Source: Gemmatimonadales bacterium | GTDB taxonomy: Bacteria; Gemmatimonadota; Gemmatimonadetes; Gemmatimonadales; GWC2-71-9 | Reading direction: 5' to 3' | Assembly (NCBI GenBank): GCA_035706765.1 | Contig: DASSUS010000017.1 | Location: 25,698 to 57,697 of the forward strand | DNA length: 32,000 bases | Part shown: positions 1-26,611 of the stretch, in pieces | Layout of the letters: each line of letters opens with the position of its first letter | Numbering within the stretch: position 1 is the first letter of the stretch | Translations under genes and position numbers: made by a program | The notes under the pieces: model-generated | Databases searched by the model: none | Seen by the model: only the letters and a program-made list of their open reading frames with translations | Told to the model about the DNA's origin: nothing

Positions 1-258
1 GCGGCCGTCGGTCGCCGCCATGTAGCCGATCAGGCGGTTCAGCATCTCCCAGATGCCGTAGAGCGAGCGGCCCAACCCGCCGACGAGAATCGGCGTGATG
101 ACGAGCTGGACCGCGGCCTTGACGGTGTAATCGAGCAGCGACGCGACGGCGGTGAGCGAGGCCCGGCGCGTGAGCTGCGCGGGCCGGCGCGTCGGTTTTG
201 CCTGCTCGAGCGGTGTGGGCGTCTCGAGCGGATTCACCGCCGCGGCGTCAGTGGCCAT
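1..258 (-). CDS. Wzx-like polysaccharide/oligosaccharide flippase (MOP superfamily), N-terminal 86 codons; the gene continues beyond the left edge
   Basis: Not in the ORF track because there is no stop in the window. Hand translation from ATG at 258 gives MATDAAAVNPLETPTPLEQAKPTRRPAQLTRRASLTAVASLLDYTVKAAVQLVITPILVGGLGRSLYGIWEMLNRLIGYMAATDGR, open through position 1. A basic N-region is followed by a hydrophobic helix and an LGxxxYGxW pattern like Wzx/MOP N-termini. The ATG overlaps the upstream gene by 11 nt. GC3 is high. Confidence 0.5.
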   Translation of the reverse strand, partial: MATDAAAVNPLETPTPLEQAKPTRRPAQLTRRASLTAVASLLDYTVKAAVQLVITPILVGGLGRSLYGIWEMLNRLIGYMAATDGR

Positions 259-922
259 TGCGGCGCAGCTTCAGCCGCGACATCAGCTCCGCGGTGTTTT
301 CGTCCTGAAGCCCGGTCTCGGTACTGAGTGTGTCGATGTGGAGGTCGCCGACCTGCGCCAGCTCGCCGATCGTGCGCTCGAACGCGCGGCGGAACCCGGC
401 GGAAAAGCCGAAGATTTCGGCATCCGACATCGTCTTCACCATGTGCGGCTTGTCGCGTGTGCGGATGCGATTGGCGAGCGTGATGTCGGTCGCGTCGATG
501 AAGACGACGAGGTCGAGCATCGAGGCCCACTGGTCGATCACGCGCGCGCGCCAGCCGGCGGGCACACGATCGCCGTTGCGGTTGAAGAAGACGTCGAGCC
601 AGCTGAGCGCGAACACCGGCCCTTCGTCGAGCAGGATGACGCGGTGGCGCTGCGCTTCTTCCTCCACCACCTGGCGCAGCGCGCCGAGCCGCACCATTTG
701 CGCGATCTCGGCGGCCTTGAGGGGCGCGCGCTCCATCGTCGCGCCGAGTATCGTGGGCAACAGCGCCATCGCGCTGCGCATCAGCCGGCGCCTGGGCAGT
801 CCCCAGAGCGAAAGCCCGGACTTGATCGAGGCGTCGGCGTCGCTCGCGCCGCGTGCGAGCGTGGTTTTTCCGGCGCCGGCCGGTCCCACCAGCTCGACGA
901 TCACTGCGCGATTCCGGCTCAC
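248..922 (-). CDS. Small P-loop NTPase, kinase-like, family unknown
   Basis: This is the last 224 codons of track ORF 248..1597. GTG at 922 forms a GTGA overlap with the stop (919-921) of the upstream gene. It has Walker A VELVGPAGAGKTT, an acidic strand VILLDEGPVF, and VVFIDATD followed by the basic RIRTRDKPH. The upstream part of the track ORF is Arg/Ala-rich and overlaps the real frame of 919..2367. Confidence 0.7.
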   Translation of the reverse strand: MSRNRAVIVELVGPAGAGKTTLARGASDADASIKSGLSLWGLPRRRLMRSAMALLPTILGATMERAPLKAAEIAQMVRLGALRQVVEEEAQRHRVILLDEGPVFALSWLDVFFNRNGDRVPAGWRARVIDQWASMLDLVVFIDATDITLANRIRTRDKPHMVKTMSDAEIFGFSAGFRRAFERTIGELAQVGDLHIDTLSTETGLQDENTAELMSRLKLRRNGH

Positions 923-2367
923 AGCGTGCTCCAGAGCTCCGATTTGAGCTTCGCGACGACCTGCGGCAGCGGTTGGGCGGCGTCGATGATCCGCGCGCCG
1001 CTCCTGGTCCAATCGGTTTCGGCGGTCTTGCGGGCCCGCTCGCGGACGTAGTCGGCCGGCTCGGACGGCTTGCGGCTGACGGCGGTCTCGGGATCGAGGC
1101 GCAGCAGGAACAGCACATCGGGCGCGCTCATCCGCTCGTAGTAGCGTCGCTCCCACGCCCGCAGCCTGTTCGCGAACGGGGACTGCGCGTCGAGCGCGCG
1201 GCCCTGGAACTCGCTCGGCCCGGCGAGCGCCCACCCTTCGGGCAGGGGATAGCGCTCGCAGATCGCGATGCCGCCGCCGGCGGCAAAGCGGCGCGCGCGC
1301 CGGTAGAGGGCGTAGCGGTCGCGCGCGGTGCAGGCCATCCGCAGCAGCTCGCCGTGCGTGATGACGCGTGAGGAGGCCTGCGCGCGGCGCAGGATTTTCA
1401 GCACTCCGCCGACGACGAGCGTGGCGAGGCTGCGCGTGGGGCGGCCCAGGTGCACGTGCGTAGTGGCGAGCGAGGATTCGAGCCATGCCTCGAGCGCGTC
1501 GGCACAGGTCGATTTCCCGGAACCGTCGCCGCCGAGCAGCGCCACGACCGACCCTCCGCTCGCGAGTCGCTGACCCGTGGGACGGACGCGCCGCCACAGT
1601 CGTTCGGCGATTCCAAACACCGGCGGGCGCCAGGCGTGCGCCGAGAGTGCCTGCGCCAGCAGCGCGCGCGCGGCCAGGCGACGGCGCGGCAGCGCGCCCG
1701 GCTGCAGCGCATCGCGGCAGCGCGAAAACAGCGAGACGCTGACCTCGGGCAAGTGCCGGCGCAGCGCCGCGACGACGACGTCAGGTGAGACCTGCTCTTC
1801 GAGCCGGTCGATTTCGTTCAGGGCACCGATCAGCCACGCCGGAGTCCGGCGCCTGAGCGAGTCGCGCACCATGTGCCGCAGCGACAGACGCACGACGGCG
1901 ACGATCAGCTCGAGCTCGGGCGCGGCGGTCTTGAAGATCGCTCCGCTGCCGCCGCGATGCTGCGCGGACTCGAGCATCGCCTTCTCGAGCGGGAGGCGGT
2001 AATGGGTTCGCCAGGGCAGGCCCACCACGAGCCGCTGATAGACGTGGAGGTGAATCAACAGTCCGGTGCGCTCGTCGAGCCCGAAGAAATGCACGATCCC
2101 CGCGGCCTCTCGGCCGGCCGGTGGCAGCGCCAGCTTGAATCCCAGCCCGTTCACGACGTCCACAAAGTCCGCGTACGACGCGCTGTCGACCAGCAAATCG
2201 ATATCGCCGCGGCCGCTCTCCCAGCGCTCGCGCTTGCCGTGACCCTTCCACTGGCAATACGAGACGCCGCGATTCGCGAGCGTGGACCCGAGTCGCGAGA
2301 CGAGCGGGGCAGGGGAAACCGAACCGCTGCGCGGCGGAGCGGCGGTGGGGAGCAGGCTCAATGACAT
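919..2367 (-). CDS. Fusion protein: N-terminal pol-beta-type nucleotidyltransferase-like domain plus C-terminal thymidylate-kinase-like P-loop kinase domain
   Basis: 482-aa ORF. The N-terminal half has [20 protein letters not shown] (GxG ... DxD) then LLIHLHVY, resembling the uncharacterised NTP_transf_5-type family. The C-terminal half has Walker [16 protein letters not shown] (DRY-like) and [15 protein letters not shown], the layout of dTMP-kinase-like kinases. ATG 2367 overlaps the upstream stop by 10 nt. Confidence 0.75.
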
Positions 2368-3548
2368 GTTCCCGACCCCGTGTCGCTGAACGAGGCGCCG
2401 GCAACGGGGACGAACACCCAGTCGTAGCTGTCGATCTTCAGGGTCAGCTTCAGCACGCCGAACGCAGAGCCGCGCACTTCGCTGTTCGGGTGCACCGCAA
2501 CCGTGGGCAGGCTGGTCCCTTCTCCGCCACCGGTACCGACGATGAACTCGCGGATCCCCTTGGCGTCATCGACGGCGCCGCTCGGCGTCATGGGCTTCAG
2601 CCGCTCGTAATGGTGTGGCTGGGCGTTGAGGACGATCTCCACTCCCGCCGCGTACAGCGCGTCCCACAACGTCTTGCGCTCGCTGTTCGAAATGCCGCCC
2701 GCGGAATTGGACGATTGCCACATCGGCACGTGCCACATGGCGATGGTGCATTTCCGGCTGTTCGCGGCCAGGTCATCGACGAGCCACTGACGCTGTTCCG
2801 AGCCAGGACCGAATTGCACGAACGGCAGGTTGTCGTTGAGAACGATCACGTGCCATTGGCCGACGTCGTAGCTGTACCATCCTTTGCCCCGTTCGCCGAC
2901 CGCGCCCCCGAAGTAGTCGAACGCGCCATCGGCATTGCCCATGTTGTACTCATGGTTGCCGAGGGTGGGATGCGTCCGCGCCTTGAATTGCCCCCAGCTC
3001 GGCGAGTAGCAGTCGTCGTAGTCGGTGTCGGTGCCGTTGGGAAACGCGTTGTCGCCGAGCGTGAAGACGACGGCGTCCGGCTCGGCGGCGATCAGCGCCG
3101 CGGTGCGGTTGTCATTCGAAGAGCTGCAGTCGCCGATGTTACCGGCACCCATGAACACGACACTCGAGGCGGACGGCCGCGCCACCTCGGCGGTGGTCGC
3201 CGCGGGTGGGCTCTTCGCCCCGCGCGCGTCGGTCACCGTCAGCGCGACGTTGTAGTCACCGTCCTGCGCGTAGGTGTGCGAAGGCTTCATGTCGGTCGAG
3301 CTCGCGCCATCGCCGAACGTCCAGCTGAACGTCAAGGCATCGCCGTCCGGATCTGATGAGGCGCTGCCGTCGAAGTTCACCGTGCCCGTGGACGAGCTAT
3401 ACGGGCCACCCACGACGGCCACCGGCGGGCTGTTGGGCGGCGGCGGTGGCGGCGACACCGGCGGTGGGGGAGGCGGTGGATTGACCGTCTCACGGCATGC
3501 GACACCCAGAGCGATGAGCAGGAACACGAATGCTGGACGCGACGTCAC
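2358..3548 (-). CDS. Secreted (lipobox-like Cys) PKD-domain purple-acid-phosphatase-like metallophosphoesterase with partly substituted metal-ligand motifs (paralogue 1)
   Basis: GTG 3548 forms GTGA with the stop of the upstream paralogue and has GGGAGA 5 nt upstream; the track start TTG 3566 is the alternative. Signal peptide [18 protein letters not shown] is followed by a Pro tract and a PKD signature ([24 protein letters not shown]...[14 protein letters not shown]). The motifs read GNIG, GDNAF, GNHE, WHVP and AQPHH. The tail is [15 protein letters not shown]...DTGSGTCH. Confidence 0.85.
3423..3479 (-). repeat. Proline-codon (CCN) low-complexity tract, G-rich on the plus strand
   Basis: Encodes [19 protein letters not shown] immediately after the signal-peptide Cys of paralogue 1. 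Confidence 0.9.
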
Positions 3549-4723
3549 TGCGGTCTCCCGTGACAAGTGCCAGAGCCGGAATCGGTGAATGTGCCGCCGG
3601 CCGAGCGGATGAAACGCCAGTCATAGCCGGCGTTTTTGAGCGTGAGTTTCAGAACGCCCCAGGTGTCGTTGTTGCGCACTTCACTGTTCGAGCCCTCGGG
3701 AATCGGCCCGAACGCGTACAGTCCTTCGCCGCCGCCCGTGCCCACGACGATCTGAGGGATGCCGAAAGCGTTATCGAGCGTGCCGTCGGGCTTCTGGGGC
3801 GCGAAGCGTTGATACGAGTGATCGTGACCGTTGAGCACGAGATCCACGCCGTACTCGTACAGCGCATTCCAGATCGCCGTCACTTCGGGGCGGATCGGAG
3901 CGCGGTCCTTGATTGTTGAGAACCGCGGATGGTGCCACACGGCGAGCGTGCATTGCTCGGTGTGCGCGGCGAGCTCGGCGCGGATCCATTGCTCCTGCGG
4001 CGAGCCGGCTTCGTAATTCACGGGGCGGTCGGTGCCGGTATTGATCACCAGCACGAACCAGCTCCCGGCCGTGAAGCTGTAATAGCCTTTCGTGGGGTCG
4101 CCGGCGGCGGCGCCGAAATAGCCGTAGTAGCCGGCCGCACCCGAGGTGTTGTAGTCGTGATTTCCGGCGACGGGGCGTGTGCGGTACTTCTGCCGGCCCC
4201 ACGCCGGGTCGTAGCAGTTCGCGTACTCCTCGGGCGTGCCGTCGAGATAGGCGTTGTCGCCGAGCGGCATGACGATGCCCGGGATGGTATCGAGCGTCTG
4301 GCCCGTGGCGTCGTCGGAAGTCCGAAGGCAGTCGCCGATGTCGCCCGCGGCGAGGATGACGGGATCGCCGGTCGTGAGGTTGAGCGATGCCGAGCCGTTG
4401 GCGTCGCGCGCGTTCGTCACGCTGACGTCGACGCGGTAGTTCCCGTTGTTCGTGTAGGTGTGCGTCGCGGGAAGCGCGCCCTGCGTGCCGACCGATCCGG
4501 TGGAGCTGTTGCCGTCGCCCCAGTTGATCGAGTAGCTCCAGGGGCCCTGGTTGCTCGAGTCGCTGAACGTCACCGGGAGGGCGAACGTCGCGGCGAGCGG
4601 AACCGAGGGGAGCGTGCCGAGCGTGACATGGAGGTTGCCGCGGGGCTCGTTGGGGCCGCCGCAGGTCACGGTGACCACCAATAGAAAAACTCCGCACATG
4701 CGGACAAGGGTGCGTGCGATCAT
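3545..4723 (-). CDS. Secreted PKD-like-domain purple-acid-phosphatase-type metallophosphoesterase with all catalytic motifs intact (paralogue 2)
   Basis: ATG 4723 forms an ATGA overlap with the stop of the upstream mini-lipoprotein; the 60 upstream codons of track ORF 3545..4903 are rejected. Signal peptide [21 protein letters not shown] is followed by INWGDG...[15 protein letters not shown]. All five PAP motifs are present ([25 protein letters not shown]). The tail is [15 protein letters not shown]...DSGSGTCH. Confidence 0.88.
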
Positions 4724-4959
4724 AGTGATGCGATGGGGCCGGACTGCCAGGGGTAGTCGTGATTGTCGCTCGTGTCCTTCGGCGTCTTTTGCGGACCGGC
4801 CTTGGGAGCGGGAGCGGGTTCTTCGGGTGGCACCGTCTGCGGTTGGACCGCGGGTGAAGGTGCCGCAACGGGACGCTCCGGCTGGCGCGATTCGCGGCCG
4901 CATCCGAGCAACAGCGCTTGCAGCGCTACTGCCAGCATACGACCGTCGAATCTCGCCAT
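4720..4959 (-). CDS. 79-aa proline-rich mini-lipoprotein
   Basis: ATG 4959 is preceded by AGGAGA with a 7-nt spacer. The signal peptide has a good lipobox (MLAVALQALLLGC). The mature part is Pro/Glu/Lys-rich (PERPVAAPSPAVQPQTVPPEEPAPAPKAGPQKTPK). The stop overlaps the next start as ATGA (4720-4723). Confidence 0.65.
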   Translation of the reverse strand: MARFDGRMLAVALQALLLGCGRESRQPERPVAAPSPAVQPQTVPPEEPAPAPKAGPQKTPKDTSDNHDYPWQSGPIASL

Positions 4960-4983: not shown

Positions 4984-6303
4984 TTAGTGGCAGGTCGCCG
5001 AACCAGAATCGGTCGGGCCACCGGGAGTCGCGTTGACGAACTCCCAGTCGTAGCTGTTGTCCTTCATCGTGAGCTTCAACACACCCCAGCTGTCGACGAT
5101 CTGCGCTTCACGCAGCGCTGGAGTGGCAGGGCCGCCGGGGTTGTCGAACGACCGGCCGCCGGTTCCGACGATGAACTGACGGAAGCCCGTCGGGTCGGGG
5201 CTCGCGGAACGAACGTCGGCGGGTGCAAACCGGGCGTACAGCTTGTCCTTCGCGCTGATCAGCAGATCGACACCGTACTGCTTCATGGTGCCGGCCATGC
5301 GAACCATGTTGAAGTTCTTGCCTTGCTCACCCAGGCTCGTGGTGTAGAAGCGCCGCTCCCACGAAATCACGGCGATGCACGGCTTCGTGTTCGCCGCGAG
5401 ATCTGTCGCAAGCCATTCAGCCTGTTCGGAAGGAACCTGAATTTCCTGTACGCCCGGTGTCGCGGGATCGCCGTCGGTCACGCCGAACGTCGTCGCCGCG
5501 CCATGCTCCCAATCGGACGTGTTCAGGAAGACGATGTGCCAGCTGCCCTTGTCGAACGAGAACCACCCCTTGTGAGCCGGGCCGGTCCGATCGCCGAGGT
5601 AGCCATATACACCATCAGGTCCGCGGTCGCTGCCGAAGTCACCGGTCCCAATCGCATACCAGGTCCGCGACCGGAACGCATCCCACCCCTTGCCCACGAA
5701 GCAGCTCTGGAACGTGGTTCCCGCGGTCATGTCGGCCAGATTGTTGCCGACAGTGAACGCGATCGCGCTCGTGTCGTTTTTCAGGATGTTATCGACCAGT
5801 GCCGCAGTGGCCTTCGGGCCAGCATCGCTGTTGCACGTCGAGATCTCGCCGGCGCCCACCATCGTGAATCCAGGAACTGTGGTCACACCCGTCGTCGTCG
5901 CCGTCGCGGTCGCGAACGCCGAGCTGGTCGTCGCGTCGAATGCCGAGACGCGATAGGTGTACTGCGTCGACGCCGCGAGCCCGACCGAGTCGACATACGT
6001 CGCGGCGTTCGCGGCCAGGTTCGCGCCGATCTGCGCGAACGTCGTGCACCCGGCGCCGCTGCACCGCTCGACCTTGTAGCCGGTCTCGGTGGTCGCGTTG
6101 TCGGTCCACGCCAGATCGACCCGCGTCTGCGACATCGGCGTCGCGGTCAATCCCGTCGGCGCGGCCAGCGTCGGCGGCGGCGGCGGTGGGGGCGGGGGTG
6201 GGTTGGTCACGGTGTCTTCTTTACAGGCGCCGAAGGCGCCGATCGTGCCGGCGGCGGCGAGCACCAGCGCGGCTCGAACCATGGAGCGGTTAGTGAACCT
6301 CAT
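4984..6303 (-). CDS. Secreted FN3-domain purple-acid-phosphatase-like protein with all metal-ligand motifs degenerate (paralogue 3, predicted pseudoenzyme)
   Basis: ATG 6303 is preceded by AAGGAGAG with a 7-nt spacer. Signal peptide MRFTNRSMVRAALVLAAAGTIGAFGAC is followed by 10 Pro and an FN3-like segment (PTGLTATPMSQTRVDLAWTDNATTETGYKVER...YTYRVSAF). The phosphoesterase core aligns to paralogues 1 and 2 but reads GEIS, GNNLA, GTGD, SWER and AKDK. The tail is VLKLTMKDNSYDWEF...DSGSATCH. Confidence 0.85.
   Translation of the reverse strand: MRFTNRSMVRAALVLAAAGTIGAFGACKEDTVTNPPPPPPPPPPTLAAPTGLTATPMSQTRVDLAWTDNATTETGYKVERCSGAGCTTFAQIGANLAANAATYVDSVGLAASTQYTYRVSAFDATTSSAFATATATTTGVTTVPGFTMVGAGEISTCNSDAGPKATAALVDNILKNDTSAIAFTVGNNLADMTAGTTFQSCFVGKGWDAFRSRTWYAIGTGDFGSDRGPDGVYGYLGDRTGPAHKGWFSFDKGSWHIVFLNTSDWEHGAATTFGVTDGDPATPGVQEIQVPSEQAEWLATDLAANTKPCIAVISWERRFYTTSLGEQGKNFNMVRMAGTMKQYGVDLLISAKDKLYARFAPADVRSASPDPTGFRQFIVGTGGRSFDNPGGPATPALREAQIVDSWGVLKLTMKDNSYDWEFVNATPGGPTDSGSATCH
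6172..6201 (-). repeat. Run of 10 proline codons, G-rich on the plus strand
   Basis: CCA CCC CCG CCC CCA CCG CCG CCG CCG CCG, read on the minus strand directly after CKEDTVTN of paralogue 3. Confidence 0.9.
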
Positions 6304-6372
6304 ACTTCGTCTCTCCTTGAGTGAAAACGTGAATCGCTTGCAAGCACAGGCCGGTGCCGGTACGAGCGGAGA

Positions 6373-6396
6373 CCGTGCCGCCGGCAGTCGGCACGG
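6373..6396 (-). other. GC-rich stem-loop (8-bp perfect stem, 8-nt loop) in the intergenic gap; possible internal terminator or RNA processing/stability element
   Basis: CCGTGCCG (6373-6380) and CGGCACGG (6389-6396) are exact reverse complements. One further pair is possible after a mismatch. No U tract follows on the minus-strand transcript. Confidence 0.3.
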
Positions 6397-6418
6397 CCGC
6401 CCAGAATCCTGAACAGCG

Positions 6419-6496
6419 TCAGTCGCACGAGAGCACCGCGAGTACGGCGCCGAGAATCACGAGGGCGCGCAGCAACAGCATCATGGCAGGTCTCAC
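6419..6496 (-). CDS. Candidate 25-codon hydrophobic micro-ORF (signal-peptide-like, ends Cys-Asp)
   Basis: The sequence GTG AGA CCT GCC ATG ATG CTG ... TGC GAC TGA encodes (M)RPAMMLLLRALVILGAVLAVLSCD. AAGGAG (6502-6507, the last codons of the upstream gene) lies 5 nt upstream of the GTG. Alternative ATG starts are at 6484 and 6481. It is too short to judge by composition. Confidence 0.25.
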   Translation of the reverse strand: MRPAMMLLLRALVILGAVLAVLSCD

Positions 6497-6498
6497 AG

Positions 6499-8775
6499 TC
6501 ACTCCTTGGCGCTGCGAAGCGTCAGCGGCGGTTCCTTGGTGCGGCGGACAGTGTGCCCCAGTGTTTCGATCCCGCGGCGGAGCGTCGCGCCGATCAACGG
6601 CAACGGGTCGTCCCATGCGAAGCCGCTCTTGGCTTCGCACTGAATGACCCACGGGACCCATTGGGCAAAGGACATGCCTGACGCGCGCGCGGCGGAGAGG
6701 TCTTTCCACGGCTTGCACCAGCGGTAGCCGGCGCGCGCGGGCACCATCATGGGGCGTGGCGCCCCGATCAAATCGCCATAAACGAGTGCGGGGAGGTTCA
6801 CGCCTGCGACGGCGCCGAGGTGATGCCAAAGGTTGAAACGCGGATTCACCTCGAGCAGCCGCAGCCGTCCGTCGAGGTCGCGCTTGAAATCGAACTTCGC
6901 CACGCCGCGGAATTGCAGCCGTTTCACCAACGCCCGGCCAAGCGCCAACACGTCCTGCGCATCACTGGTCTCGAGGGCGGTGCTGTCGCCGTAAGCGGGC
7001 GGCAGGGTGCGAATTTTCTTTCCCGCGAACTCGCCGGCGATCGCGCCGCGCTCGTCCACGTAGGCGTGATAGCTCTCGATGCTCGTCTCGGCGCCGGGAA
7101 TCAGCTCCTGCGCGAGCAGCGCGAGATTCGCGGCCATGATGCGCGGCCATAGCTCACGCAGCTCGCGCATGGACTGCACCGAGATCGCCTTGCCCGCGCT
7201 CGCGATCGGTTCCCAGCGCGCCGGAATCCGCACCAGCGGTTTCAGAATCAACGGGAACGGGATCGGGAAATCGTCGCCCGGCTCCGGGTCGCCCGGGTTG
7301 ATCACCCGCGCGGCGGGCACCGGCAAATCGAGTTTGGCGGCGAGCGCCTGAAACCGGGATTTGTCCACGAGCTGCTCGACCAGCTCGGCGTCGGGCACGA
7401 CGAACCGGAACGCCTCGCGCAGCCGTTCCCGATGCCGCGACACCATCAGCAGCGTCCGGTCTTCCTGATAGAACAGGCACGGCGGCTCGGGCTGCGCCTG
7501 ACCGAAGCGGACCAGCGACTCGACCAGCGGCTCCTGGCTGTCCCACGCGTTATGCCACGGGAATACGGCGCGGGTGTGGCGCGAGTAGCGCACCGGCGCG
7601 CCCGGAGGCGCGAGCACCGTGGAGGGAATGCGCGCGCACCCGAGCGCGCGCACGAGGTCGATGTCGCCGAGCACCACGGCCGGGGGGCGGGTGGGGTGCG
7701 CGGGACGTCCCGCCCGCCCGATGAACCCGGTGGCCTGACGCGTGACGAGCGAGGCTCGGCCGCGCAGCGACTGCTGCCACCCGTAGACCCGTTTCGCGAC
7801 CCTGCGCGCCTTCATGAGCCACGGCCGGCGCCCGCGCAGCCAGCGCACTTTCCGCCGATCCGGCTCGGCGCCGAACTTGATCTTGAACTCGCCGCCGCCC
7901 ATGAAGTCGAACGTGGTGCAGCCGAGCTCGATCGCCCGCTGCATCACCGTCCAGGTCATGAGCTCGGTGGGGCGATACCAGCGGTAATGCTGGCGGTGCG
8001 CCCACATCCACAGCAGCAGCTCGGTCCCTTCGACGTAGAAGATCCCCGTGGCGATGTTCACGCGCCCGCCCGGGAGATAGACCGAGATCGCGATGAGGTT
8101 TCCGCTCTGCTTCAGCTTCCGGAAAAACTCGAGCACGCGCTGCTTCCCGAACGGGACCGCGAATCCGCCGCGCCGATAGACTTCCTTCAGCTGGGCGTAG
8201 TGCTCGTCGACGAAGCTCTCATCGTCCTCGAACTTCGTGATGAGCCCGAGCCGCTGCGCGCGCTTCACGTTGCGGCGCGCGCTCATCTTCAGCTGCTTGA
8301 AGGTGCGGGCCTCGTCGTTGGGGTAGAGCGGCGCGCGGAAGGTGAAGACCGGCTCGTCCTCGAAGCCGGCGGCGCGCATCCCCTCCGGATCGAGCCCGAG
8401 GTGCAGCATCTCGATGTGATCGACGTCGTGCTCGCGCTCGAGGTACGACACGACCGACGACGCGAACGCGCCGGTGTCGAACCGGGCGGGATCGTAGGCG
8501 GGACCGAGACTCACGGTCTGCCACCCGGCGAGCGGCGAGCCGAACAGCTTCCAGCGGCCGACGGTGACGAGCAGGCCGGGGAAGCACCCTACGATTCCGG
8601 TCTCGTCCTCGAGCAGCCGATAGAGCGGCTTGCCGCAATTGCAGCTCGCGAGGGTATCGATCCACGCACGCGTGTGCGGCAGGCGGTAGTTGGGAAAGCG
8701 CCGCACGATCGCGTCCCAATTCGCGAGCTCCGTCGCGCTCGCTTCGCGCACGCGCATCGTTGCTGAAGGAGTCAT
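6499..8775 (-). CDS. Fusion protein: N-terminal FemAB-like/GNAT-fold acyl(aminoacyl)transferase domain plus C-terminal ATP-grasp carboxylate-amine ligase domain
   Basis: 758-aa ORF. ATG 8775 has GAGGAC 5 nt upstream and a 1-nt overlap (TGATG) with the upstream stop. Residues ~1-340 show FemAB/CelD-like features (WMWAHRQHYRWYRPTELMTWTVMQRAIELGCTTFDFMGGGEFKIKFGAEP). A basic linker follows. Residues ~370-758 look like a COG3919-style ATP-grasp (DKSRFQALAAKLDLPVP, PLILKP, LAQELIPG, VAKFDFKRDLDGRLRLLEVNPRF). Confidence 0.8.
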   Translation of the reverse strand: MTPSATMRVREASATELANWDAIVRRFPNYRLPHTRAWIDTLASCNCGKPLYRLLEDETGIVGCFPGLLVTVGRWKLFGSPLAGWQTVSLGPAYDPARFDTGAFASSVVSYLEREHDVDHIEMLHLGLDPEGMRAAGFEDEPVFTFRAPLYPNDEARTFKQLKMSARRNVKRAQRLGLITKFEDDESFVDEHYAQLKEVYRRGGFAVPFGKQRVLEFFRKLKQSGNLIAISVYLPGGRVNIATGIFYVEGTELLLWMWAHRQHYRWYRPTELMTWTVMQRAIELGCTTFDFMGGGEFKIKFGAEPDRRKVRWLRGRRPWLMKARRVAKRVYGWQQSLRGRASLVTRQATGFIGRAGRPAHPTRPPAVVLGDIDLVRALGCARIPSTVLAPPGAPVRYSRHTRAVFPWHNAWDSQEPLVESLVRFGQAQPEPPCLFYQEDRTLLMVSRHRERLREAFRFVVPDAELVEQLVDKSRFQALAAKLDLPVPAARVINPGDPEPGDDFPIPFPLILKPLVRIPARWEPIASAGKAISVQSMRELRELWPRIMAANLALLAQELIPGAETSIESYHAYVDERGAIAGEFAGKKIRTLPPAYGDSTALETSDAQDVLALGRALVKRLQFRGVAKFDFKRDLDGRLRLLEVNPRFNLWHHLGAVAGVNLPALVYGDLIGAPRPMMVPARAGYRWCKPWKDLSAARASGMSFAQWVPWVIQCEAKSGFAWDDPLPLIGATLRRGIETLGHTVRRTKEPPLTLRSAKE

Positions 8776-14408: not shown

Positions 14409-14663
14409 GGACAAGACGACTCCGCATTGGGCTGTGCCGCCCCGTAATGCACCTTCCATGCTCAACGCGGTCGTGCTTGTGCCCGGCGCCGAACGCCTCA
14501 GGACTCAGCGCGGCGCGCCCGGCAGTTGCTACCGAACAGGGCGCAAGGCCGTGAGCGCTGTGGGGTTAACTGCGTGACGGCGCACGGCACCGAGCTTGCG
14601 TGGCGGAGCTAGACGTCTAGGCGTCGGAACGTCTAGCAGTTCTTGCCCAAGGAGCCACGCGCG
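14409..14663. promoter_or_regulatory. Divergent intergenic control region between the two polysaccharide operons
   Basis: This is the largest non-coding gap in the window and is flanked by outward-facing gene starts (14408 minus, 14664 plus). I could not assign confident -35/-10 hexamers. Confidence 0.6.
14609..14636. promoter_or_regulatory. Candidate operator: 12-bp perfect palindrome CTAGACGTCTAG plus a repeated half-site ACGTCTAG 16 bp downstream
   Basis: CTAGACGTCTAG (14609-14620) is its own reverse complement. ACGTCTAG recurs at 14629-14636. That puts three CTAG tetramers in 28 bp of GC-rich DNA, 28-55 nt upstream of the ATG at 14664. Confidence 0.4.
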
Positions 14664-17069
14664 ATGTCGGGTCACAACGGTGACAACGGTGAAAAAGGCG
14701 GGATTCCGGTCCTTCGCTCGGAGTCAACGAGTCTCGATACCAATCGATTGAAGAGTCTGGCGGCGGCCTCCGCGCCGCCTCCGCCGCCCGCGGAGCAGAG
14801 CGACTGGCAGCGGTATTTCAACTCCGTGATGCGCCACAAGTGGTTGGTGATCGGCGTGACCGCCCTGGGAACGCTCGCGGGCGTCATCGCCACGCGCTTC
14901 CTCGATCCCCGCTATACCGCGAAGGCGATCCTCTGGGTCGACGTCGCGGTCGGTCGAGACCGGGGCGTGCAGTCGGATCAGCTGCTCGATTCGCGCGGCT
15001 GGGTCGAGTTGGTGACGTCCAACGCGGTGCTCGATACGGTCGTCAAACAGCGGCGCCTGTTCGTTACGCCCTTGAGCGCGGCGGACTCGGCCGCGCTGAC
15101 GACGTTCGACGTCGGCGACAAGGTGATCCCCGGCTCCTACCGCCTGATCGTAGACAAGGCAGGCAGGGCGTGGCGCCTCGAGCTGGAAGACGGGACCACG
15201 GTGCAACGCGGGCGCGTCGGCCAGCCGGTGGGGGACAATGCGGGGTTCTACTGGACCCCCAGCGCCGCGGTACTGAAGCCCGGCACGACCATCGCCTTCA
15301 AGGTGCGCGCCGTTCCCGATGCGTCCGCGTCGCTGGCGAACGACCTCAAGGCGCGGCTCGATCCGGCGGGCAACTTCCTGCGTCTTCAATTGAAGGGCAC
15401 GAATCCAGCGGCCACCGCGGCGACGCTCAATGCGGTCACCGCGCGCATCGTGGCCGTGGAAACCGACATGAAGCGCCGGAAATTCCAGGAGCTCGCGACG
15501 GTGCTGGAAGAGCAGTACACGCACGCCCGGGACGCGCTCACGCAGGCCGAGGAGGCGGTGCGGTCGTTCCGGCAACGCACCTGGAATCGTCCCCTGGTGA
15601 CCCAGACGCCGGGCGGTGGCCTGGCGGTCGAGGGGAGTGGAGTGGCGCGCCAGCTGGGGGAGGAAAACGATCAGCGGCGGCGCGACCGCGCCATGCTCGA
15701 CCAGCTCGCCGCCCGCTCGGCGACGGGCAGTGTGTCGGTCGAAATGTGGAACAGCATCCCCGCGGTCCAGAAGTCGCCGATCATGCAGAGTGCGTTACAG
15801 GATCTCGGGAAGAAGCAGGCCGACCTGCGGGCGCTGCGGCTGCAGTACACGGACGAGGCCGCCCCGGTGAAGCAGCTGCAAAACGATCTCGCGATGCTGG
15901 AGCATCAGCAGATTCCGTCGCTCGCGCGCATGCTGGCGCGCGACCTCGGCGAAGTCGTCGCGATCACGAAGCCGCGCGCCGACACGGCGCTGGGCGAGCT
16001 GCGGGCCGCACCCAACCTCGCGCTGGAGCAGGAGCGACTCGTGCGCGAACAGCGCATGGCCGAGGAGCAGTTCACGCAGATAGACAAGGAATACGAGACC
16101 GCCAAGCTGGGCCTGATCAGCGCGCTTCCGGACGTACGCGTGCTCGATCCGGCCGTGGAGCCGCGGCGGCCCGCCAGTGACTACGGTCCCCTGCTCATTC
16201 TGCTGGCGATGATGGCGAGCTTCGGCGTGGCGGTGCTCGGCGTGACGGTGCGGGACCGGATGGATCCCAAAGTCCGCTATCCCGAGCAGATCACCGGCCG
16301 GATGCAGCTGCAGATCCTGGGTGCCGTGCCGCACGTGAGCTGGCGCCTCGGAGCCAATGGCGACGGCCCGGCCCAGGTCATCGAAGCGCTGCGCGGCTTG
16401 CGCCTGCGCGTGCTCCATGCGCACTCGGGCGAAGGACCCCTGGCGCTCACGATCACGAGCCCCGGCATCGGGGACGGCAAATCGTTCGTGTCGTTGAACC
16501 TCGCGCTCTCGTTCGCCGACGCCGGCTATCGCACGCTGCTGGTGGACGGCGACACGCGCCGCGGCGTGCAGCACAAGGCGCTCAAAACGCCGTCGACGCC
16601 GGGCCTGACCGACGTCGTCGCGGGCCGGGTGCCGCTCGATCAGGCGCTGCGGCAGACCTCGTATCCAGGGCTGTCGTTCCTGAGCTCGGGGACTCGCATG
16701 CAGCGCGCCCCGGAGCGCCTGCTGTCGCAGAACATGCGCGACCTCATGGCGAAGCTGCGCTCGATGTATGACGTGGTGATTATGGATAGCCCGCCGCTCG
16801 GAGCGGGCGCGGATCCGCTGGTGCTGGGCACGCTGACCGAGAACCTCATGCTCGTGCTGCGCACCGGCCAGTCGGACATCAATCTGGCGTCCACGAAGCT
16901 CGAAGTGCTCAACGCGCTGCCGGTGCGAGTCATCGGCGCGGTGCTGAACGACGTGCGCTCGAGCGGCGTGTATCGCTACTACATGTACTCCTCGGCGGAA
17001 TACGAGCTGGTGGATGATGAAGGCCCGACCAGAGAGGCGCTGCCGAGCATCCTGGGAGGTCGGACATGA
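14664..17069 (+). CDS. Polysaccharide co-polymerase (Wzz-domain) fused to a BY-type tyrosine autokinase (Wzc/GumC/EpsB-like)
   Basis: ATG 14664 has AAGGAG (14649-14654) 9 nt upstream; the track start 14643 is a TTG. TM1 is WLVIGVTALGTLAGVIATRF, followed by a long coiled periplasmic region and TM2 LLILLAMMASFGVAVLGVTV. Walker A is SPGIGDGKS, Walker A-prime is LLVDGDTRRG, and Walker B is VVIMDSPPL. The C-terminal Tyr cluster is VYRYYMYSSAEY. Confidence 0.9.
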   Translation: MSGHNGDNGEKGGIPVLRSESTSLDTNRLKSLAAASAPPPPPAEQSDWQRYFNSVMRHKWLVIGVTALGTLAGVIATRFLDPRYTAKAILWVDVAVGRDRGVQSDQLLDSRGWVELVTSNAVLDTVVKQRRLFVTPLSAADSAALTTFDVGDKVIPGSYRLIVDKAGRAWRLELEDGTTVQRGRVGQPVGDNAGFYWTPSAAVLKPGTTIAFKVRAVPDASASLANDLKARLDPAGNFLRLQLKGTNPAATAATLNAVTARIVAVETDMKRRKFQELATVLEEQYTHARDALTQAEEAVRSFRQRTWNRPLVTQTPGGGLAVEGSGVARQLGEENDQRRRDRAMLDQLAARSATGSVSVEMWNSIPAVQKSPIMQSALQDLGKKQADLRALRLQYTDEAAPVKQLQNDLAMLEHQQIPSLARMLARDLGEVVAITKPRADTALGELRAAPNLALEQERLVREQRMAEEQFTQIDKEYETAKLGLISALPDVRVLDPAVEPRRPASDYGPLLILLAMMASFGVAVLGVTVRDRMDPKVRYPEQITGRMQLQILGAVPHVSWRLGANGDGPAQVIEALRGLRLRVLHAHSGEGPLALTITSPGIGDGKSFVSLNLALSFADAGYRTLLVDGDTRRGVQHKALKTPSTPGLTDVVAGRVPLDQALRQTSYPGLSFLSSGTRMQRAPERLLSQNMRDLMAKLRSMYDVVIMDSPPLGAGADPLVLGTLTENLMLVLRTGQSDINLASTKLEVLNALPVRVIGAVLNDVRSSGVYRYYMYSSAEYELVDDEGPTREALPSILGGRT

Positions 17070-17791
17070 GCAAGGCGTGGGTGATGGTAGGCGGGCTCTG
17101 GGCGCTGCTGTTGAGCTCCGGATCGCTGGCAGCGCAGGATCCGCGAAAGGTCGCCGATCGGCCGCTCGCGACCCGCGAAGAGCTGCAGGCCGCACTCGAG
17201 CAGGCCGGTTCGTCGGACGTCGCGGTCCGGATTAAGTCCCGTCTGAACGATGGAGATTTTCACCGCGGCGACCGAATCGCTCTTATGGTTCAGGCGGAAT
17301 CCACGCTGACCGATACGTTTACAGTTGGCAACGGTCCCGAGCTGATGTTGCCGCCGCCCACGACGGGATCGATGTCGCTCAAGGGCGTGCTGCGCTCGGA
17401 GCTGCAGTCGAAGCTCGAAGAGTACGTCGGCCGCTTCCGCAACAATCCCGTGGTGCGCGCGCAGCCGCTGCTGCGGATCTCGGTGCAGGGCGAAGTCACC
17501 AGGGCGGGGATCTATGCGGTCCCGGCGGATGCCCAGCTGGCCGACGCGTTGATGGCGGCGGGCGGGACGACCCAGTTCGCCAAGCCGAACAAGGTCACGA
17601 TCGAGCGCAACGGCAAGAAATACTGGGAGGGCTCGGCGTTCGACACCGACCTGGACGTGCTCGGATTGCGCGACGGTGATCAGATCGTAGTCGACTCGAA
17701 GCGCCCGGGCGGAACGGACAATCTGCGGGTGGCTGCGCTGCTGATCAGCATCGCGGGCGGGCTGTACGGACTGAGCAGGGCCATCAAATAG
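17066..17791 (+). CDS. Wza-like outer-membrane polysaccharide export protein (Poly_export plus SLBB-like), short form
   Basis: ATGA overlap with the upstream gene. Signal peptide is MSKAWVMVGGLWALLLSSGSLAAQ. GDRIALMV...LTDTFTV, ISVQGEVTRAGIYAVPADAQLADALMAAGG and DGDQIVV are present. The C-terminal hydrophobic helix is VAALLISIAGGLYGL. Confidence 0.8.
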   Translation: MSKAWVMVGGLWALLLSSGSLAAQDPRKVADRPLATREELQAALEQAGSSDVAVRIKSRLNDGDFHRGDRIALMVQAESTLTDTFTVGNGPELMLPPPTTGSMSLKGVLRSELQSKLEEYVGRFRNNPVVRAQPLLRISVQGEVTRAGIYAVPADAQLADALMAAGGTTQFAKPNKVTIERNGKKYWEGSAFDTDLDVLGLRDGDQIVVDSKRPGGTDNLRVAALLISIAGGLYGLSRAIK

Positions 17792-17798
17792 GAGCACC

Positions 17799-19667
17799 AT
17801 GGCTGTCAGCATCACGCGTGGCATCACGCGACGCCTCCCGATTGGTGCAGAAATTACGTCGGGGGGCGTTCACTTTCGGGTGTGGGCACCCAAACGCAAC
17901 CGGGTAGAGGTCGAGTCCGGCGGGGAGCTCGTGGAGCTGGACCGCGAGCCGGCCGGCTACTTCTCGGGGTTCGTTTCGGGTCTTGGGGCGGGAAGCCTGT
18001 ATCGATACCGGCTCGACGGCGGCAAGAGTTTTGCCGATCCCGCCTCGCGCTTTCAGCCTTCCGGGCCGCACGACGCGTCACAGATCGTCGATCCCTCCCG
18101 CTTCCGCTGGACCGATCACGCCTGGCCGGGTATCGCCTCGTCACGCCAGGTCGTGTACGAGCTGCACATCGGGACGTTTACAGAGGAAGGCACGTACGCC
18201 GCGGCCGCCGAGCGACTCGAGAGCCTCGTGGACGTGGGGGTCAGCGTCGTCGAGGTCATGCCCGTTGCGGAGTTCGCCGGCGAATTCGGTTGGGGGTACG
18301 ACGGCGTCCACTGGTTCGCTCCGTATCACTGCTACGGGTCGTGTGACGACCTGCGGGCGTTCGTAAACCGCGCGCACGAGCTCAAGCTCGGTGTGATTCT
18401 CGACGTGGTCTACAATCACTTTGGTCCCGTCGGCAATTACATCAACGAGTTTTCCGATTCGTTCTTCAGCAAAAAGCATCACACCGACTGGGGCGACGCG
18501 ATCAACTACGACGACGAGGGCGCCGAAGGCGTCCGTGAGTTCGTCGTCAGCAACGTGCAGCATTGGATCGCCGAGTACCACTTCGACGGCCTGCGGCTCG
18601 ATGCGACGCACTCGATCTTCGACGACTCGCCCCGGCACATTCTCCAGGATATCGGGACCGCGGCGCGCGAAGCGGCGGGGAAGCGGTCGGTCGTCATCAT
18701 GGCGGAGACGGAGACGCAGGATTCACGGATCGTGCGTTCCGTCGAGCAGGGTGGGCACGGGCTGGACCACATCTGGTGCGACGATTTTCACCACCTCGCG
18801 CTCGTGGCCGCGACGGGGAAGCGGGAAGGCTACTACACCGATTACTGCGGCAGCGCTCAGGAGTTTGTCTCGGCCATCAAATACGGCCCGCTGTATCAGG
18901 GGCAGTTCTACTCCTGGCAGAAGCAACGGCGCGGCTGGCCCGCCTACGACGTGCCGCGCTGGCGCATGGTCCACTGCCTGGAAAACCACGATCAGGTGGC
19001 CAACTCGCGCGATGGCAGGCGGCTGCATCAGCTGACGAGTCCCGGCCGGTATCGCGCGCTGACGGCGTTGCTCCTGCTCGCCCCGCAGACGCCGTTGCTC
19101 TTTCAGGGCGAAGAATTCGGTTCCAGCGCCCCCTTCCTCTATTTCGCCGATCATGATCCGGAGCTGCGCAAGCTCGTGTGCAAAGGCCGGGCGGAGTTTC
19201 TGGCGCAATTTCTATCCGTCGCGGAGGATGAGCCGGACGTCGTCGCGGACCCGGGCGATCCGGCGACGTTCGAGCGCTCGCGCCTCGATTGGTCGGAGCG
19301 GGAACGCCATGCCGGGCACCTCGCGCTGCACAAGGATCTGATCGAGCTCCGGAAGCGCGATCCCGTTCTGTCGACCGATCGGCGCGAGCTCGACGGCGCG
19401 GTGCTGGGTGCGCAGGCGTTCGTGCTTCGGTTCTTCGCGCTCGGCGCGGATCGGCTGCTGCTGGTGAACCTTGGGGCCGACATCGTGCTGGACACCGTAC
19501 CCGAACCCCTCCTTGCGCCACCGGATCGCGACCGCGGGTGGACGCGCCTCTGGCACAGCAACCAGCTGCGCTATGGCGGGCGCGGCGCTCCAGTTCCCGA
19601 AACGGAAGTAGGCTCGTGGCGGATTCCGGCAGAGTCAACGACCCTCCTCGCCCCGTCAGGCGCCTAG
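17799..19667 (+). CDS. treZ: Malto-oligosyltrehalose trehalohydrolase (GH13)
   Basis: 622 aa with VHFRVWAP, YRYRLDG, FADPASRFQPSGPH, VVYELHIGTFTEEGT, WGYDGV, LDVVYNHFGPVGNY and FDGLRLDATH. AGGAG overlaps the upstream stop, 4 nt before the ATG. Confidence 0.85.
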   Translation: MAVSITRGITRRLPIGAEITSGGVHFRVWAPKRNRVEVESGGELVELDREPAGYFSGFVSGLGAGSLYRYRLDGGKSFADPASRFQPSGPHDASQIVDPSRFRWTDHAWPGIASSRQVVYELHIGTFTEEGTYAAAAERLESLVDVGVSVVEVMPVAEFAGEFGWGYDGVHWFAPYHCYGSCDDLRAFVNRAHELKLGVILDVVYNHFGPVGNYINEFSDSFFSKKHHTDWGDAINYDDEGAEGVREFVVSNVQHWIAEYHFDGLRLDATHSIFDDSPRHILQDIGTAAREAAGKRSVVIMAETETQDSRIVRSVEQGGHGLDHIWCDDFHHLALVAATGKREGYYTDYCGSAQEFVSAIKYGPLYQGQFYSWQKQRRGWPAYDVPRWRMVHCLENHDQVANSRDGRRLHQLTSPGRYRALTALLLLAPQTPLLFQGEEFGSSAPFLYFADHDPELRKLVCKGRAEFLAQFLSVAEDEPDVVADPGDPATFERSRLDWSERERHAGHLALHKDLIELRKRDPVLSTDRRELDGAVLGAQAFVLRFFALGADRLLLVNLGADIVLDTVPEPLLAPPDRDRGWTRLWHSNQLRYGGRGAPVPETEVGSWRIPAESTTLLAPSGA

Positions 19668-24004: not shown

Positions 24005-26607
<2,603 letters not shown>

Positions 26608-26611
<4 letters not shown>

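Follow-up and report, generated by a model that had tools for sequence, protein, structure and literature searches.

We analyzed 32,000 nucleotides (nt) of DNA from a Gemmatimonadales bacterium (assembly GCA_035706765.1, contig DASSUS010000017.1, positions 25,698 to 57,697 of the forward strand); this whole stretch is called the window, and coordinates count from its first nucleotide. It encodes three paralogues related to the purple acid phosphatases (PAPs), namely, paralogue 1 (P1), paralogue 2 (P2), and paralogue 3 (P3), the last of which is the subject of this study. Comparison of P3 with its relatives makes it very probable that the protein is dead as a PAP-type metallophosphatase. Beyond that, we lean slightly toward P3 being a pseudophosphatase that has been kept as a noncatalytic binding or structural subunit, acting with P2 and P1 at an extracytoplasmic stage of polysaccharide metabolism. 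The pseudoenzyme call is much firmer than that of the partnership. The P3 gene is organized as follows:

4984 to 6303, minus strand: P3 gene, putative pseudophosphatase lipoprotein of 439 residues plus a TAA stop (open reading frame, orthologues, substitution rates, structure model)
6311 to 6318, minus strand: Shine-Dalgarno sequence AAGGAGAG, 7 nt 5' of the P3 ATG at 6303 (read directly from the sequence)
6223 to 6303, minus strand: predicted signal peptide and lipobox MRFTNRSMVRAALVLAAAGTIGAFGAC, with Cys27 (pattern based)
6163 to 6222, minus strand: Pro-rich linker (translation; pLDDT of 42 in residue block 21 to 30 and of 75 in block 31 to 40)
5920 to 6162, minus strand: FN3 domain, residues 48 to 128 (Pfam and PDB matches by sequence and fold)
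4987 to 5868, minus strand: PAP-fold domain without metal ligands, residues 146 to 439 (hhalign, family profile, Foldseek)
5434 to 5517, minus strand: P3-specific insertion, residues 263 to 290, between motifs III and IV (alignment gap in P2 and P1)

A preliminary description of this DNA, made by eye, had reported an uninterrupted frame of 439 codons with a strong Shine-Dalgarno sequence, and both the list of open reading frames and the position of AAGGAGAG bear this out. The N terminus has a basic n-region, a hydrophobic h-region, and a lipobox ending in Cys, as judged by pattern only and not by a dedicated predictor. Because the GAFGAC lipobox, the n-region, and the hydrophobic region are also near-invariant among orthologues, P3 is most simply regarded as a bacterial lipoprotein with an extracytoplasmic location. 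The FN3 domain was assigned by Pfam (PF00041, E-value of 1.1e-6, 29.1 bits against a gathering cutoff of 25), and the assignment was backed by FN3 matches in the PDB both by sequence and by fold. It was the sole Pfam domain in P3, in which Metallophos was absent even at an E-value of ≤1. The swap of the accessory module from PKD to FN3 that had been suggested earlier is real because Pfam placed fn3 only in P3 and PKD in P2 and P1. A search of NCBIfam with P3 gave no match, and the protein collection searched held no exact match to its sequence.

Metal-ligand positions of P3

The seven metal ligands are invariant among PAPs (PMC2267794). We looked for them in P3 as the ordered set Asp, Asp, Tyr, Asn, His, His, His within the motifs GDxG, GDxxY, GNH(D/E), VxxH, and GHxH. 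Three kinds of alignment were used: a three-way MAFFT alignment of P3, P2, and P1; a profile-profile comparison (hhalign) of 110 full-length P3 orthologues (alignment A2) with 63 P2 orthologues (alignment A3); and a joint L-INS-i alignment of all 173 of these sequences. In the three-way alignment, P3 was 27% identical to P2 and 32% identical to P1, and the three proteins aligned along the whole C-terminal 290 residues. All seven ligands are substituted in P3 according to MAFFT, hhalign, and L-INS-i alike, the replacements being Asp to E153, Asp to N187, Tyr to A190, Asn to T220, and His to W315, K352, and K354. The former motifs lie at the following positions:

5836 to 5850, minus strand: former motif I, GEIST, with E153 in place of the Asp ligand (alignments)
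5734 to 5748, minus strand: former motif II, GNNLA, with N187 in place of the bridging Asp and A190 in place of Tyr (alignments)
5638 to 5649, minus strand: former motif III, GTGD, with T220 in place of Asn, G221 in place of the catalytic His, and D222 kept (MAFFT, hhalign)
5353 to 5367, minus strand: former motif IV, ISWER, with W315 in place of the ligand His, E316 in place of the second His, and R317 in place of Pro
5242 to 5253, minus strand: former motif V, AKDK, with K352 and K354 in place of two His ligands and D353 kept

The catalytic His of motif III, which is not a ligand in PAPs, is thus G221 in P3. In the preliminary description, the blocks GDIG, GDNAY, GNHD, VWHH, and GHDH of P2 had been paired with GEIS(T), GNNLA, GTGD, SWER, and AKDK of P3, and MAFFT reproduced these readings. 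For motif IV, the loss of the ligand stood and the register did not. Both hhalign and L-INS-i run ungapped from Cys309 and pair VWHHP with ISWER, so that VWHH corresponds to ISWE, one residue away from the SWER reading; His is absent from this motif in either register. A ligand set that is intact in P3 and merely shifted could be ruled out, as the profile alignments moved only motif IV, and that by one residue. The sole conserved His of the P3 PAP domain, H256, lies outside the ligand positions.

P2 served as the intact reference, as it had in the preliminary description. It has seven of seven ligands, and its signature is DDYNHHH in all nine loci examined. Its motifs II to V match those of rat and wheat PAPs residue for residue in PDB searches, and motif I was placed through the full-length Pfam Metallophos match. 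The segments said to be retained in P3 were found again with MAFFT, namely, QFIVGTGG, YGVDLL, WGVLKLTMKDNSYDWEF, the four Cys columns, and the C-terminal SATCH. In P3 numbering, the four Cys columns, invariant and common to P3, P2, and P1, are C157, C201, C309, and C438; they would fit an oxidizing, extracytoplasmic site.

In the three-way alignment, the region of the P3-specific insertion is 18 residues longer in P3 than in P2 and P1, and the structure model has lower confidence there (pLDDT of 82 and 74). A conserved W-E-H-G opens the region. Its position loosely recalls that of the loop over the active site in mammalian PAPs.

Fold of the PAP-like domain

By profile comparison, P3 is certainly homologous to the intact paralogue family: hhalign aligned the P3 and P2 families with a probability of 100% and an E-value of 5.7e-62 over 294 columns at 32% identity. 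In PDB searches, the P3-family profile matched the solved PAP 6gja (E-value of 9.6e-7). The single P3 sequence retrieved FN3 proteins only, and the family profile was needed to reach the PAPs.

An AlphaFold 2 (AF2) model of P3, built from a 110-sequence alignment, was of high confidence, with a mean pLDDT of 89.5 and a pTM of 0.71. When the model was compared with the PDB by Foldseek, ranks 1 to 32 were 31 PAPs and PhoD (rank 27), and FN3 domains followed. The PAPs included lupin PPD1, wheat phytase, and the kidney bean, sweet potato, human, pig, and rat enzymes, with E-values of 7.6e-17 to 1e-11 and TM scores of 0.67 to 0.72 normalized to the mammalian PAPs. A structure model had been proposed as a check on the by-eye alignment, and it returned a PAP-like fold. 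In metallophosphoesterases, the ligands sit at or just past the C-terminal ends of beta-strands, and in the AF2 model, all five former motifs are found at or just past such ends. P3 therefore has the fold of the metallophosphoesterase superfamily and sequence homology to it, and it does not reach the gathering score of PF00149.

The rebuilt former active site

Next, we examined the residues that took the place of the ligands and their neighbors. Their conservation among P3 orthologues is as follows:

E153: 98%
N187: 83%, with Asp in a further 14%
A190: Ala in 59%
T220: Asn in 52% of family members
D222: 100%
W315: 92%
E316: 80%
R317: 99%
R318: 100%
K352: 79%
D353: 99%
K354: 82%
R384: 95%

Only two PAP ligands persist in part of the P3 family, namely, the Asn (52%) and, less often, the bridging Asp (14%); the Tyr-equivalent position 190 is Ala, Thr, Ser, Gly, or Asn. 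The 15 motif residues of P3 had a mean conservation of 0.83 versus 0.59 for the domain (permutation P = 1e-4), and the 7 ligand-equivalent positions had a mean of 0.78 (P = 0.035). Since the substitutes are conserved above the domain average, the pocket has been rebuilt and has not simply decayed. In the joint alignment, 13 columns of the PAP domain are conserved in both families with different residues, and most of these lie at or beside the five motifs. The preliminary description had taken the pattern to mean that selection acts on the fold and no longer on catalysis. This reading is too simple, as the replacement residues are themselves constrained.

Further evidence concerns how these residues vary together. 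Position 316 is acidic in 87/87 sequences with K352 and in only 7/23 without it (Fisher's exact test, 3.5e-14, a value that ignores kinship), as would be expected if a Lys-Glu salt bridge occupied the former metal site. In one P3 subclade, the aromatic residue has been relocated from position 315 to position 352. We read the pocket as a putative charge-balanced network of Lys/Arg and Glu/Asp that, together with an aromatic residue, takes up the room of the two metal ions. The binuclear metal site would thereby have been replaced by a conserved set of charged and aromatic side chains that largely neutralize one another (E153, N187, D222, W315, E316, R317, R318, K352, D353, K354, and R384). The true ligands of the P2 family are 98 to 100% conserved, and K352 and K354 stand at about 80% versus 100% for the corresponding His residues of P2. 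This relaxed conservation speaks for a structural or binding role more than for catalysis. The P3 pocket as a whole appears constrained yet looser than a catalytic center, so that a structural plug or binding site would fit it better.

Orthologues and selection

A homology search with P3 gave 480 matches, including more than 110 full-length orthologues at 43 to 90% identity, and every orthologue with a named source came from a Gemmatimonadales metagenome bin. Pfam Metallophos was on record for none of the listed P3 orthologues, whose precomputed domain content was fn3 or nothing. Some listed family members are labeled "acid phosphatase type 7" by their source pipelines, and such labels on P3-type genes can inflate counts of phosphatases in surveys of soil phosphorus cycling. 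A search of 185,579 species-representative genomes found two true P3 orthologues, both in Gemmatimonadales/Gemmatimonadetes; the other 78 loci hold ordinary domain-level relatives from many phyla.

Ratios of nonsynonymous to synonymous substitution rates (dN/dS) were calculated by the Nei-Gojobori method (NG86) for unsaturated pairs among the window and the orthologous loci L003 and L004 (P3 dS of 0.37 to 0.58), with the following results:

P3, whole: 0.16 to 0.20
P3, PAP-like domain: 0.12 to 0.17
P2: 0.165 to 0.23
P1: 0.12 to 0.18
U482, a neighboring gene: 0.09 to 0.155

P3 is under purifying selection and is as constrained as the live paralogue P2. The estimate, which had been called for along with the pseudophosphatase prediction, is comparable for P3, P2, and P1. 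P3 is accordingly a homologue of an enzyme that lacks the catalytic residues and is conserved under purifying selection, as a pseudoenzyme should be.

The operon of P3, LP79, P2, and P1

Immediately downstream of P3 on the same strand are the genes for a small lipoprotein, LP79, and for the other two paralogues:

4720 to 4959, minus strand: LP79, Pro-rich lipoprotein of 79 residues between P3 and P2, with the Shine-Dalgarno sequence AGGAGA (open reading frame, loci L001 to L006)
3545 to 4723, minus strand: P2, intact PAP-like lipoprotein of 392 residues with PKD, Metallophos, and Metallophos_C domains and seven of seven ligands (Pfam)
2358 to 3548, minus strand: P1, partial-ligand paralogue of 396 residues with PKD and Metallophos domains and the signature N-D-F-N-H-Q-H, four of seven ligands (Pfam, alignment)

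The Shine-Dalgarno sequence of LP79 lies 24 nt past the P3 stop, and the LP79 stop overlaps the P2 start (ATGA). LP79 has the lipobox LLLGC and a conserved C-terminal YPWQSGPIA(S/A)L; it is kept in L001 to L006, in two of which gene callers left it uncalled. Lipoboxes are also found in P1 and in the P2 family consensus, and the P2 of the window has an atypical Thr at position -1. An NCBI protein of 392 residues from a Gemmatimonadales metagenome-assembled genome (MAG), P0121, matches P2 with 100% identity. The raw open reading frame of P2 (3545 to 4903) reaches 60 codons past the true ATG at 4723 and overlaps LP79 in another frame; this extension is spurious because the MAG protein is identical from Met61. 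At 67% GC, long spurious open reading frames occur in most frames, so length alone is no evidence of a gene.

P1 begins at a GTG at 3548 that overlaps the P2 stop (GTGA) and not at the TTG at 3566. It has lost the motif I Asp (to Asn), the Tyr (to Phe), and the first His of motif V (to Gln), and its signature is invariant in 9/9 loci examined. On this comparison, P1 is a second stable, partly degenerate paralogue, one that the preliminary description had not flagged.

The gene order P3-(LP79)-P2-P1 and the ligand signatures are identical in 9/9 loci (8 fetched plus the window), which represent eight independent genomes or contigs, as L008 duplicates L001. To judge from gene order and overlaps, P3-LP79-P2-P1 is a conserved, translationally coupled lipoprotein operon, from which P3 would be coproduced with LP79, P2, and P1. 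In all P3-bearing loci, down to 47% identity, these genes are flanked by a FemAB/ATP-grasp gene on one side and by U482, AAA, and Wzx genes on the other.

A gene for a lipoprotein of 73 to 76 residues lies directly 5' of P3 in L001, L004, and L005, and none was called in L003. The C terminus of its product (..AAGGTxSxSGTGxCL) resembles the end of the PAP-like domain, and the gene could pass for a remnant of a fourth paralogue. In the window (6304 to 6502, minus strand), this gene is broken, with an in-frame TGA past ..AVLSCD (open reading frame 6419 to 6496), an internal deletion, and loss of the original stop.

Fusions of live and degenerate domains

A HMMER search with the P3 domain retrieved 5,027 representative proteins at an E-value of ≤1e-3. 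Among the best 150 of these, 31 carry multiple copies of the domain, and 19 of the 31 consist of exactly one domain with seven of seven ligands plus one to three degenerate domains. Thus, P0245 reads 0/7, 0/7, and 7/7, and P0241 reads 4/7, a P1-like 5/7, 7/7, and 3/7. P2-type and P1-type domains are fused in operon order in the P2 relatives P0140, P0151, P0158, P0162, and P0190, and the P1 signature recurs as the C-terminal half of two-domain fusions. By the Rosetta stone argument, such fusions imply that a dead domain of this clade usually functions next to a live domain. The multidomain proteins are giants of 600 to 2,700 residues from metagenome contigs, with two to four PAP-like domains and PKD or Big_2 arrays between them.

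Comparison with known systems

P3 has the same fold as the PAPs (1KBP/4DHL, 1XZW, 3ZK4, 6GJA, and 1UTE/1WAR), and like P3, the plant PAPs have an N-terminal Ig-like beta-sandwich ahead of the catalytic-type domain. Unlike them, P3 has none of the seven ligands and no Pfam Metallophos match, is bacterial and apparently lipid anchored, and carries the 18-residue insertion between motifs III and IV. With P2, it shares the four Cys columns, GTGG, the WGVLKLT...YDW...F block, a C-terminal G(S/T)xxCH, the operon, and the lipoprotein organization; it differs from P2 in ligands (zero versus seven of seven), in the accessory module (FN3 versus PKD), and in the 13 conserved family-specific switches. Members of the P2 family are labeled "acid phosphatase type 7" or "PKD domain-containing protein" by the source pipelines.

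Dead proteins with the metallophosphoesterase fold are already known. VPS29, a retromer subunit, has a metallophosphatase fold without phosphatase activity and acts as a rigid scaffold for protein interactions (PMC3101248). It offers a functional analogy for a scaffold role of P3, although it is eukaryotic and cytosolic and lost its activity independently. VPS29 was not among the 50 best Foldseek matches of the P3 model or among the sequence matches. Inactivated calcineurin-like phosphoesterase domains were reportedly described by Aravind and Koonin in 1998 in the B subunits of archaeo-eukaryotic DNA polymerases. These subunits resemble P3 in having lost the ligands and in being conserved and noncatalytic, and they are essential and have a catalytic protein as a partner. 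They differ in that they belong to another clade of the superfamily, are intracellular, and have a polymerase and not a live paralogue as that partner.

The PhoD enzymes are extracytoplasmic and form a sister group to the PAPs, and their set of divalent-metal ligands has been wholly retooled; PhoD uses a Tyr- and Cys-ligated Fe3+ and two Ca2+ bound via Asp and Asn (PMC4223295). PhoD presumably acts on a phosphate-containing cell wall polymer. The PhoD structure 2yeq is a structural neighbor of the P3 model (Foldseek E-value of 3e-13). P3 differs from PhoD in having no Tyr and in having Lys, Arg, and Trp in the site, and it has no PhoD Pfam match at an E-value of ≤1.

In full-text searches of the literature, we found no described bacterial pseudoenzyme of the PAP clade, no metallophosphoesterase lipoprotein linked to exopolysaccharide, and no P3 operon, and the lipocone paper gave generic phosphoesterase neighborhoods only. 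We rate P3 as an independent, well-conserved pseudoenzyme lineage with a rebuilt pocket within a graded set of live, half-dead, and dead paralogues. The domain grammar of one live plus n dead domains appears to be undescribed.

Role of P3

Taken together, these results suggest that P3 is most likely unable to bind an Fe/Zn-type metal pair or to hydrolyze phosphate esters. We propose that, in a Wzx/Wzy-type pathway, it probably serves either as a subunit that binds a substrate or glycan or as a structural companion to the live enzyme. The suggestion that P3 is a partner of P2 in particular is not proven, and its support is indirect, consisting of the invariant gene order, the start-stop overlaps, and the live-dead fusions in relatives.

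The data show homology, fold, loss of the seven ligands, conservation and purifying selection, synteny, and live-dead fusions in relatives; from these, we infer that P3 lacks activity, is extracytoplasmic, and has partners and a ligand. Several observations weigh against this proposal. The clustering of the substitutes in three dimensions is judged from the alignment and the strand ends only. Sequence-based predictions of loss or change of metal ligands in PhoD were wrong until the structure was solved (PMC4223295). No fusion protein with a P3-type (E-N-A-W-K-K) domain was seen among the relatives examined. Over some 7.5 kb, the window and L003, its closest relative, are mostly 91 to 100% identical in nucleotide sequence, and identity falls to 85 to 89% in three separate stretches of 150 nt; by contrast, a contiguous 750-nt block of the P3 PAP domain (5101 to 5850) is only 82 to 85% identical. 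The dS between the two is 0.58 in this block versus 0.08 in the FN3 part and 0.11 to 0.15 in neighboring genes, and the block looks like an imported recombination tract. Such divergence beside conserved P2 and P1 means that P3 alleles can be swapped independently of their supposed partners. Finally, the same polysaccharide genes recur in L036 (a Gemmatimonadales MAG, DASWHL010000115.1) together with three PAP paralogues, none of which is of P3 type; their signatures are DDYNHHSHH, NDYNHHHHH, and NDFNHHVQH, and one of the three genes lies upstream of the FemAB/ATP-grasp gene. Since this cluster does without P3, P3 is an accessory and not a core part of the system.

A further point bears on the first alternative, that P3 is a neofunctionalized, metal-independent enzyme that cleaves, trims, or transfers an anionic sugar on the polysaccharide of the cluster. 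The pocket is conserved above background, and E153, D222, R317, R318, and D353 are 98 to 100% conserved, as might equally be expected of a new catalytic site or of one that binds a ligand tightly. Carboxylates (E153, D222, E316, and D353), basic residues (R317, R318, K352, K354, and R384), and aromatic residues (W315 and Y320) would be available for chemistry, and the gene lies within a Wzx/Wzy polysaccharide operon. Carbohydrate-active sites typically contain Trp, Tyr, and carboxylates, and FN3 is common in extracellular carbohydrate-active enzymes. However, K352, K354, and E316 vary in about 20% of the orthologues and covary as a salt bridge would and not as a catalytic triad would; moreover, the structural neighbors of the PAP-like domain in the PDB are all phosphatases, and no enzyme of another class is known to use the PAP fold in this way. 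We consider a new enzymatic function possible but unlikely.

P3 could instead be a stand-alone binder, i.e., a lectin-like protein, a reader of phosphate or other anions, or a polymer anchor, with its position beside P2 and P1 due to tandem duplication and coregulation. Tandem paralogues are adjacent by origin, and the independent exchange of P3 alleles, the absence of P3 from L036, and the lack of P3-type domains fused to live domains would all agree with such a role. The persistence of gene order and coupling down to 47% identity and the recurrence of fusions of one live with n dead domains argue otherwise, and we regard this explanation as rather improbable.

It is very unlikely that P3 is a metallophosphoesterase that binds Ca2+ or Mg2+ through E153, N187, D222, E316, and D353 in the manner of PhoD. 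Four to five O-donor residues do lie at or beside the ligand positions, PhoD is among the structural neighbors of the model, and PhoD itself is a precedent for retooling in which predictions from sequence failed (PMC4223295). Against this, PhoD kept a Tyr-ligated Fe3+ where P3 has Ala, Thr, or Ser; the two Lys and two Arg residues in the P3 site would repel cations; and P3 lacks a Pfam match to Metallophos or PhoD at an E-value of ≤1. That P3 is a functionless duplicate decaying into a pseudogene is hardly credible: all catalytic residues are lost and a small neighboring paralogue relic is broken in the window, but more than 110 orthologues at 43 to 90% identity have kept an uninterrupted frame, the dN/dS of 0.16 to 0.20 equals that of the live paralogue, the substitutes are conserved, and the Shine-Dalgarno sequence is strong.

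If P3 is a noncatalytic subunit, as we favor, then a more specific and quite doubtful extension is that P3, LP79, P2, and P1 form a dedicated envelope machine of a Wzx/Wzy pathway in which the graded dead copies (P1 with four and P3 with none of the seven ligands) use rebuilt, metal-free pockets of Lys, Arg, Glu, and Trp to hold an anionic or phosphate-bearing glycan, or a polyprenyl-pyrophosphate end, for the live subunit. Giant multidomain proteins, presumably of soil bacteria, would carry the same grammar within one chain. If true, this machine could be a periplasmic step that trims the polymer or releases it from its lipid carrier. The operon has built-in controls in the live P2 and the partial-ligand P1, and more than 110 orthologues of P3 are at hand. 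It is a clean system for the role of dead enzyme domains beside live ones in the bacterial envelope, and it also bears on what PAP-type phosphoesterases contribute to the Wzx/Wzy pathway.

Polysaccharide genes around the operon

Upstream of P3 on the same strand are genes for a PglF-like dehydratase, a DegT aminotransferase, a formyltransferase, a PIG-L deacetylase, an initiating sugar transferase, and a FemAB/ATP-grasp protein. The orthologous contigs go on with Wzx, Wzy_C, AsnB, and GT4 genes. The P3 operon itself is situated in a Wzx/Wzy polysaccharide cluster. Linkage to exopolysaccharide genes as a general trait of the PAP-like family was rejected, as L036 alone among the 78 other loci had the same cluster genes.

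Two conserved genes follow P1. U482 (919 to 2367, minus strand; 482 residues) lies directly downstream of P1 and overlaps it; its C terminus has a weak thymidylate kinase-like P-loop match in Pfam, and its N-terminal half is unassigned. AAA224 (248 to 922, minus strand; 224 residues) overlaps U482 and has a weak Pfam match to AAA_18, with a P-loop. PDB searches with U482 and AAA224 gave nothing useful on a substrate. The two proteins might phosphorylate a sugar or polymer that is later acted on by the PAP-like proteins.

Farther along the window, within 14643 to 21712 on the plus strand and thus divergent, are genes for a Wzc-like tyrosine kinase/copolymerase of 808 residues and a Wza-like SLBB export protein of 241 residues. 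These two are followed by genes of the alpha-amylase family and for glycogen debranching, and alanyl-tRNA synthetase is encoded at 24005 to 26611.

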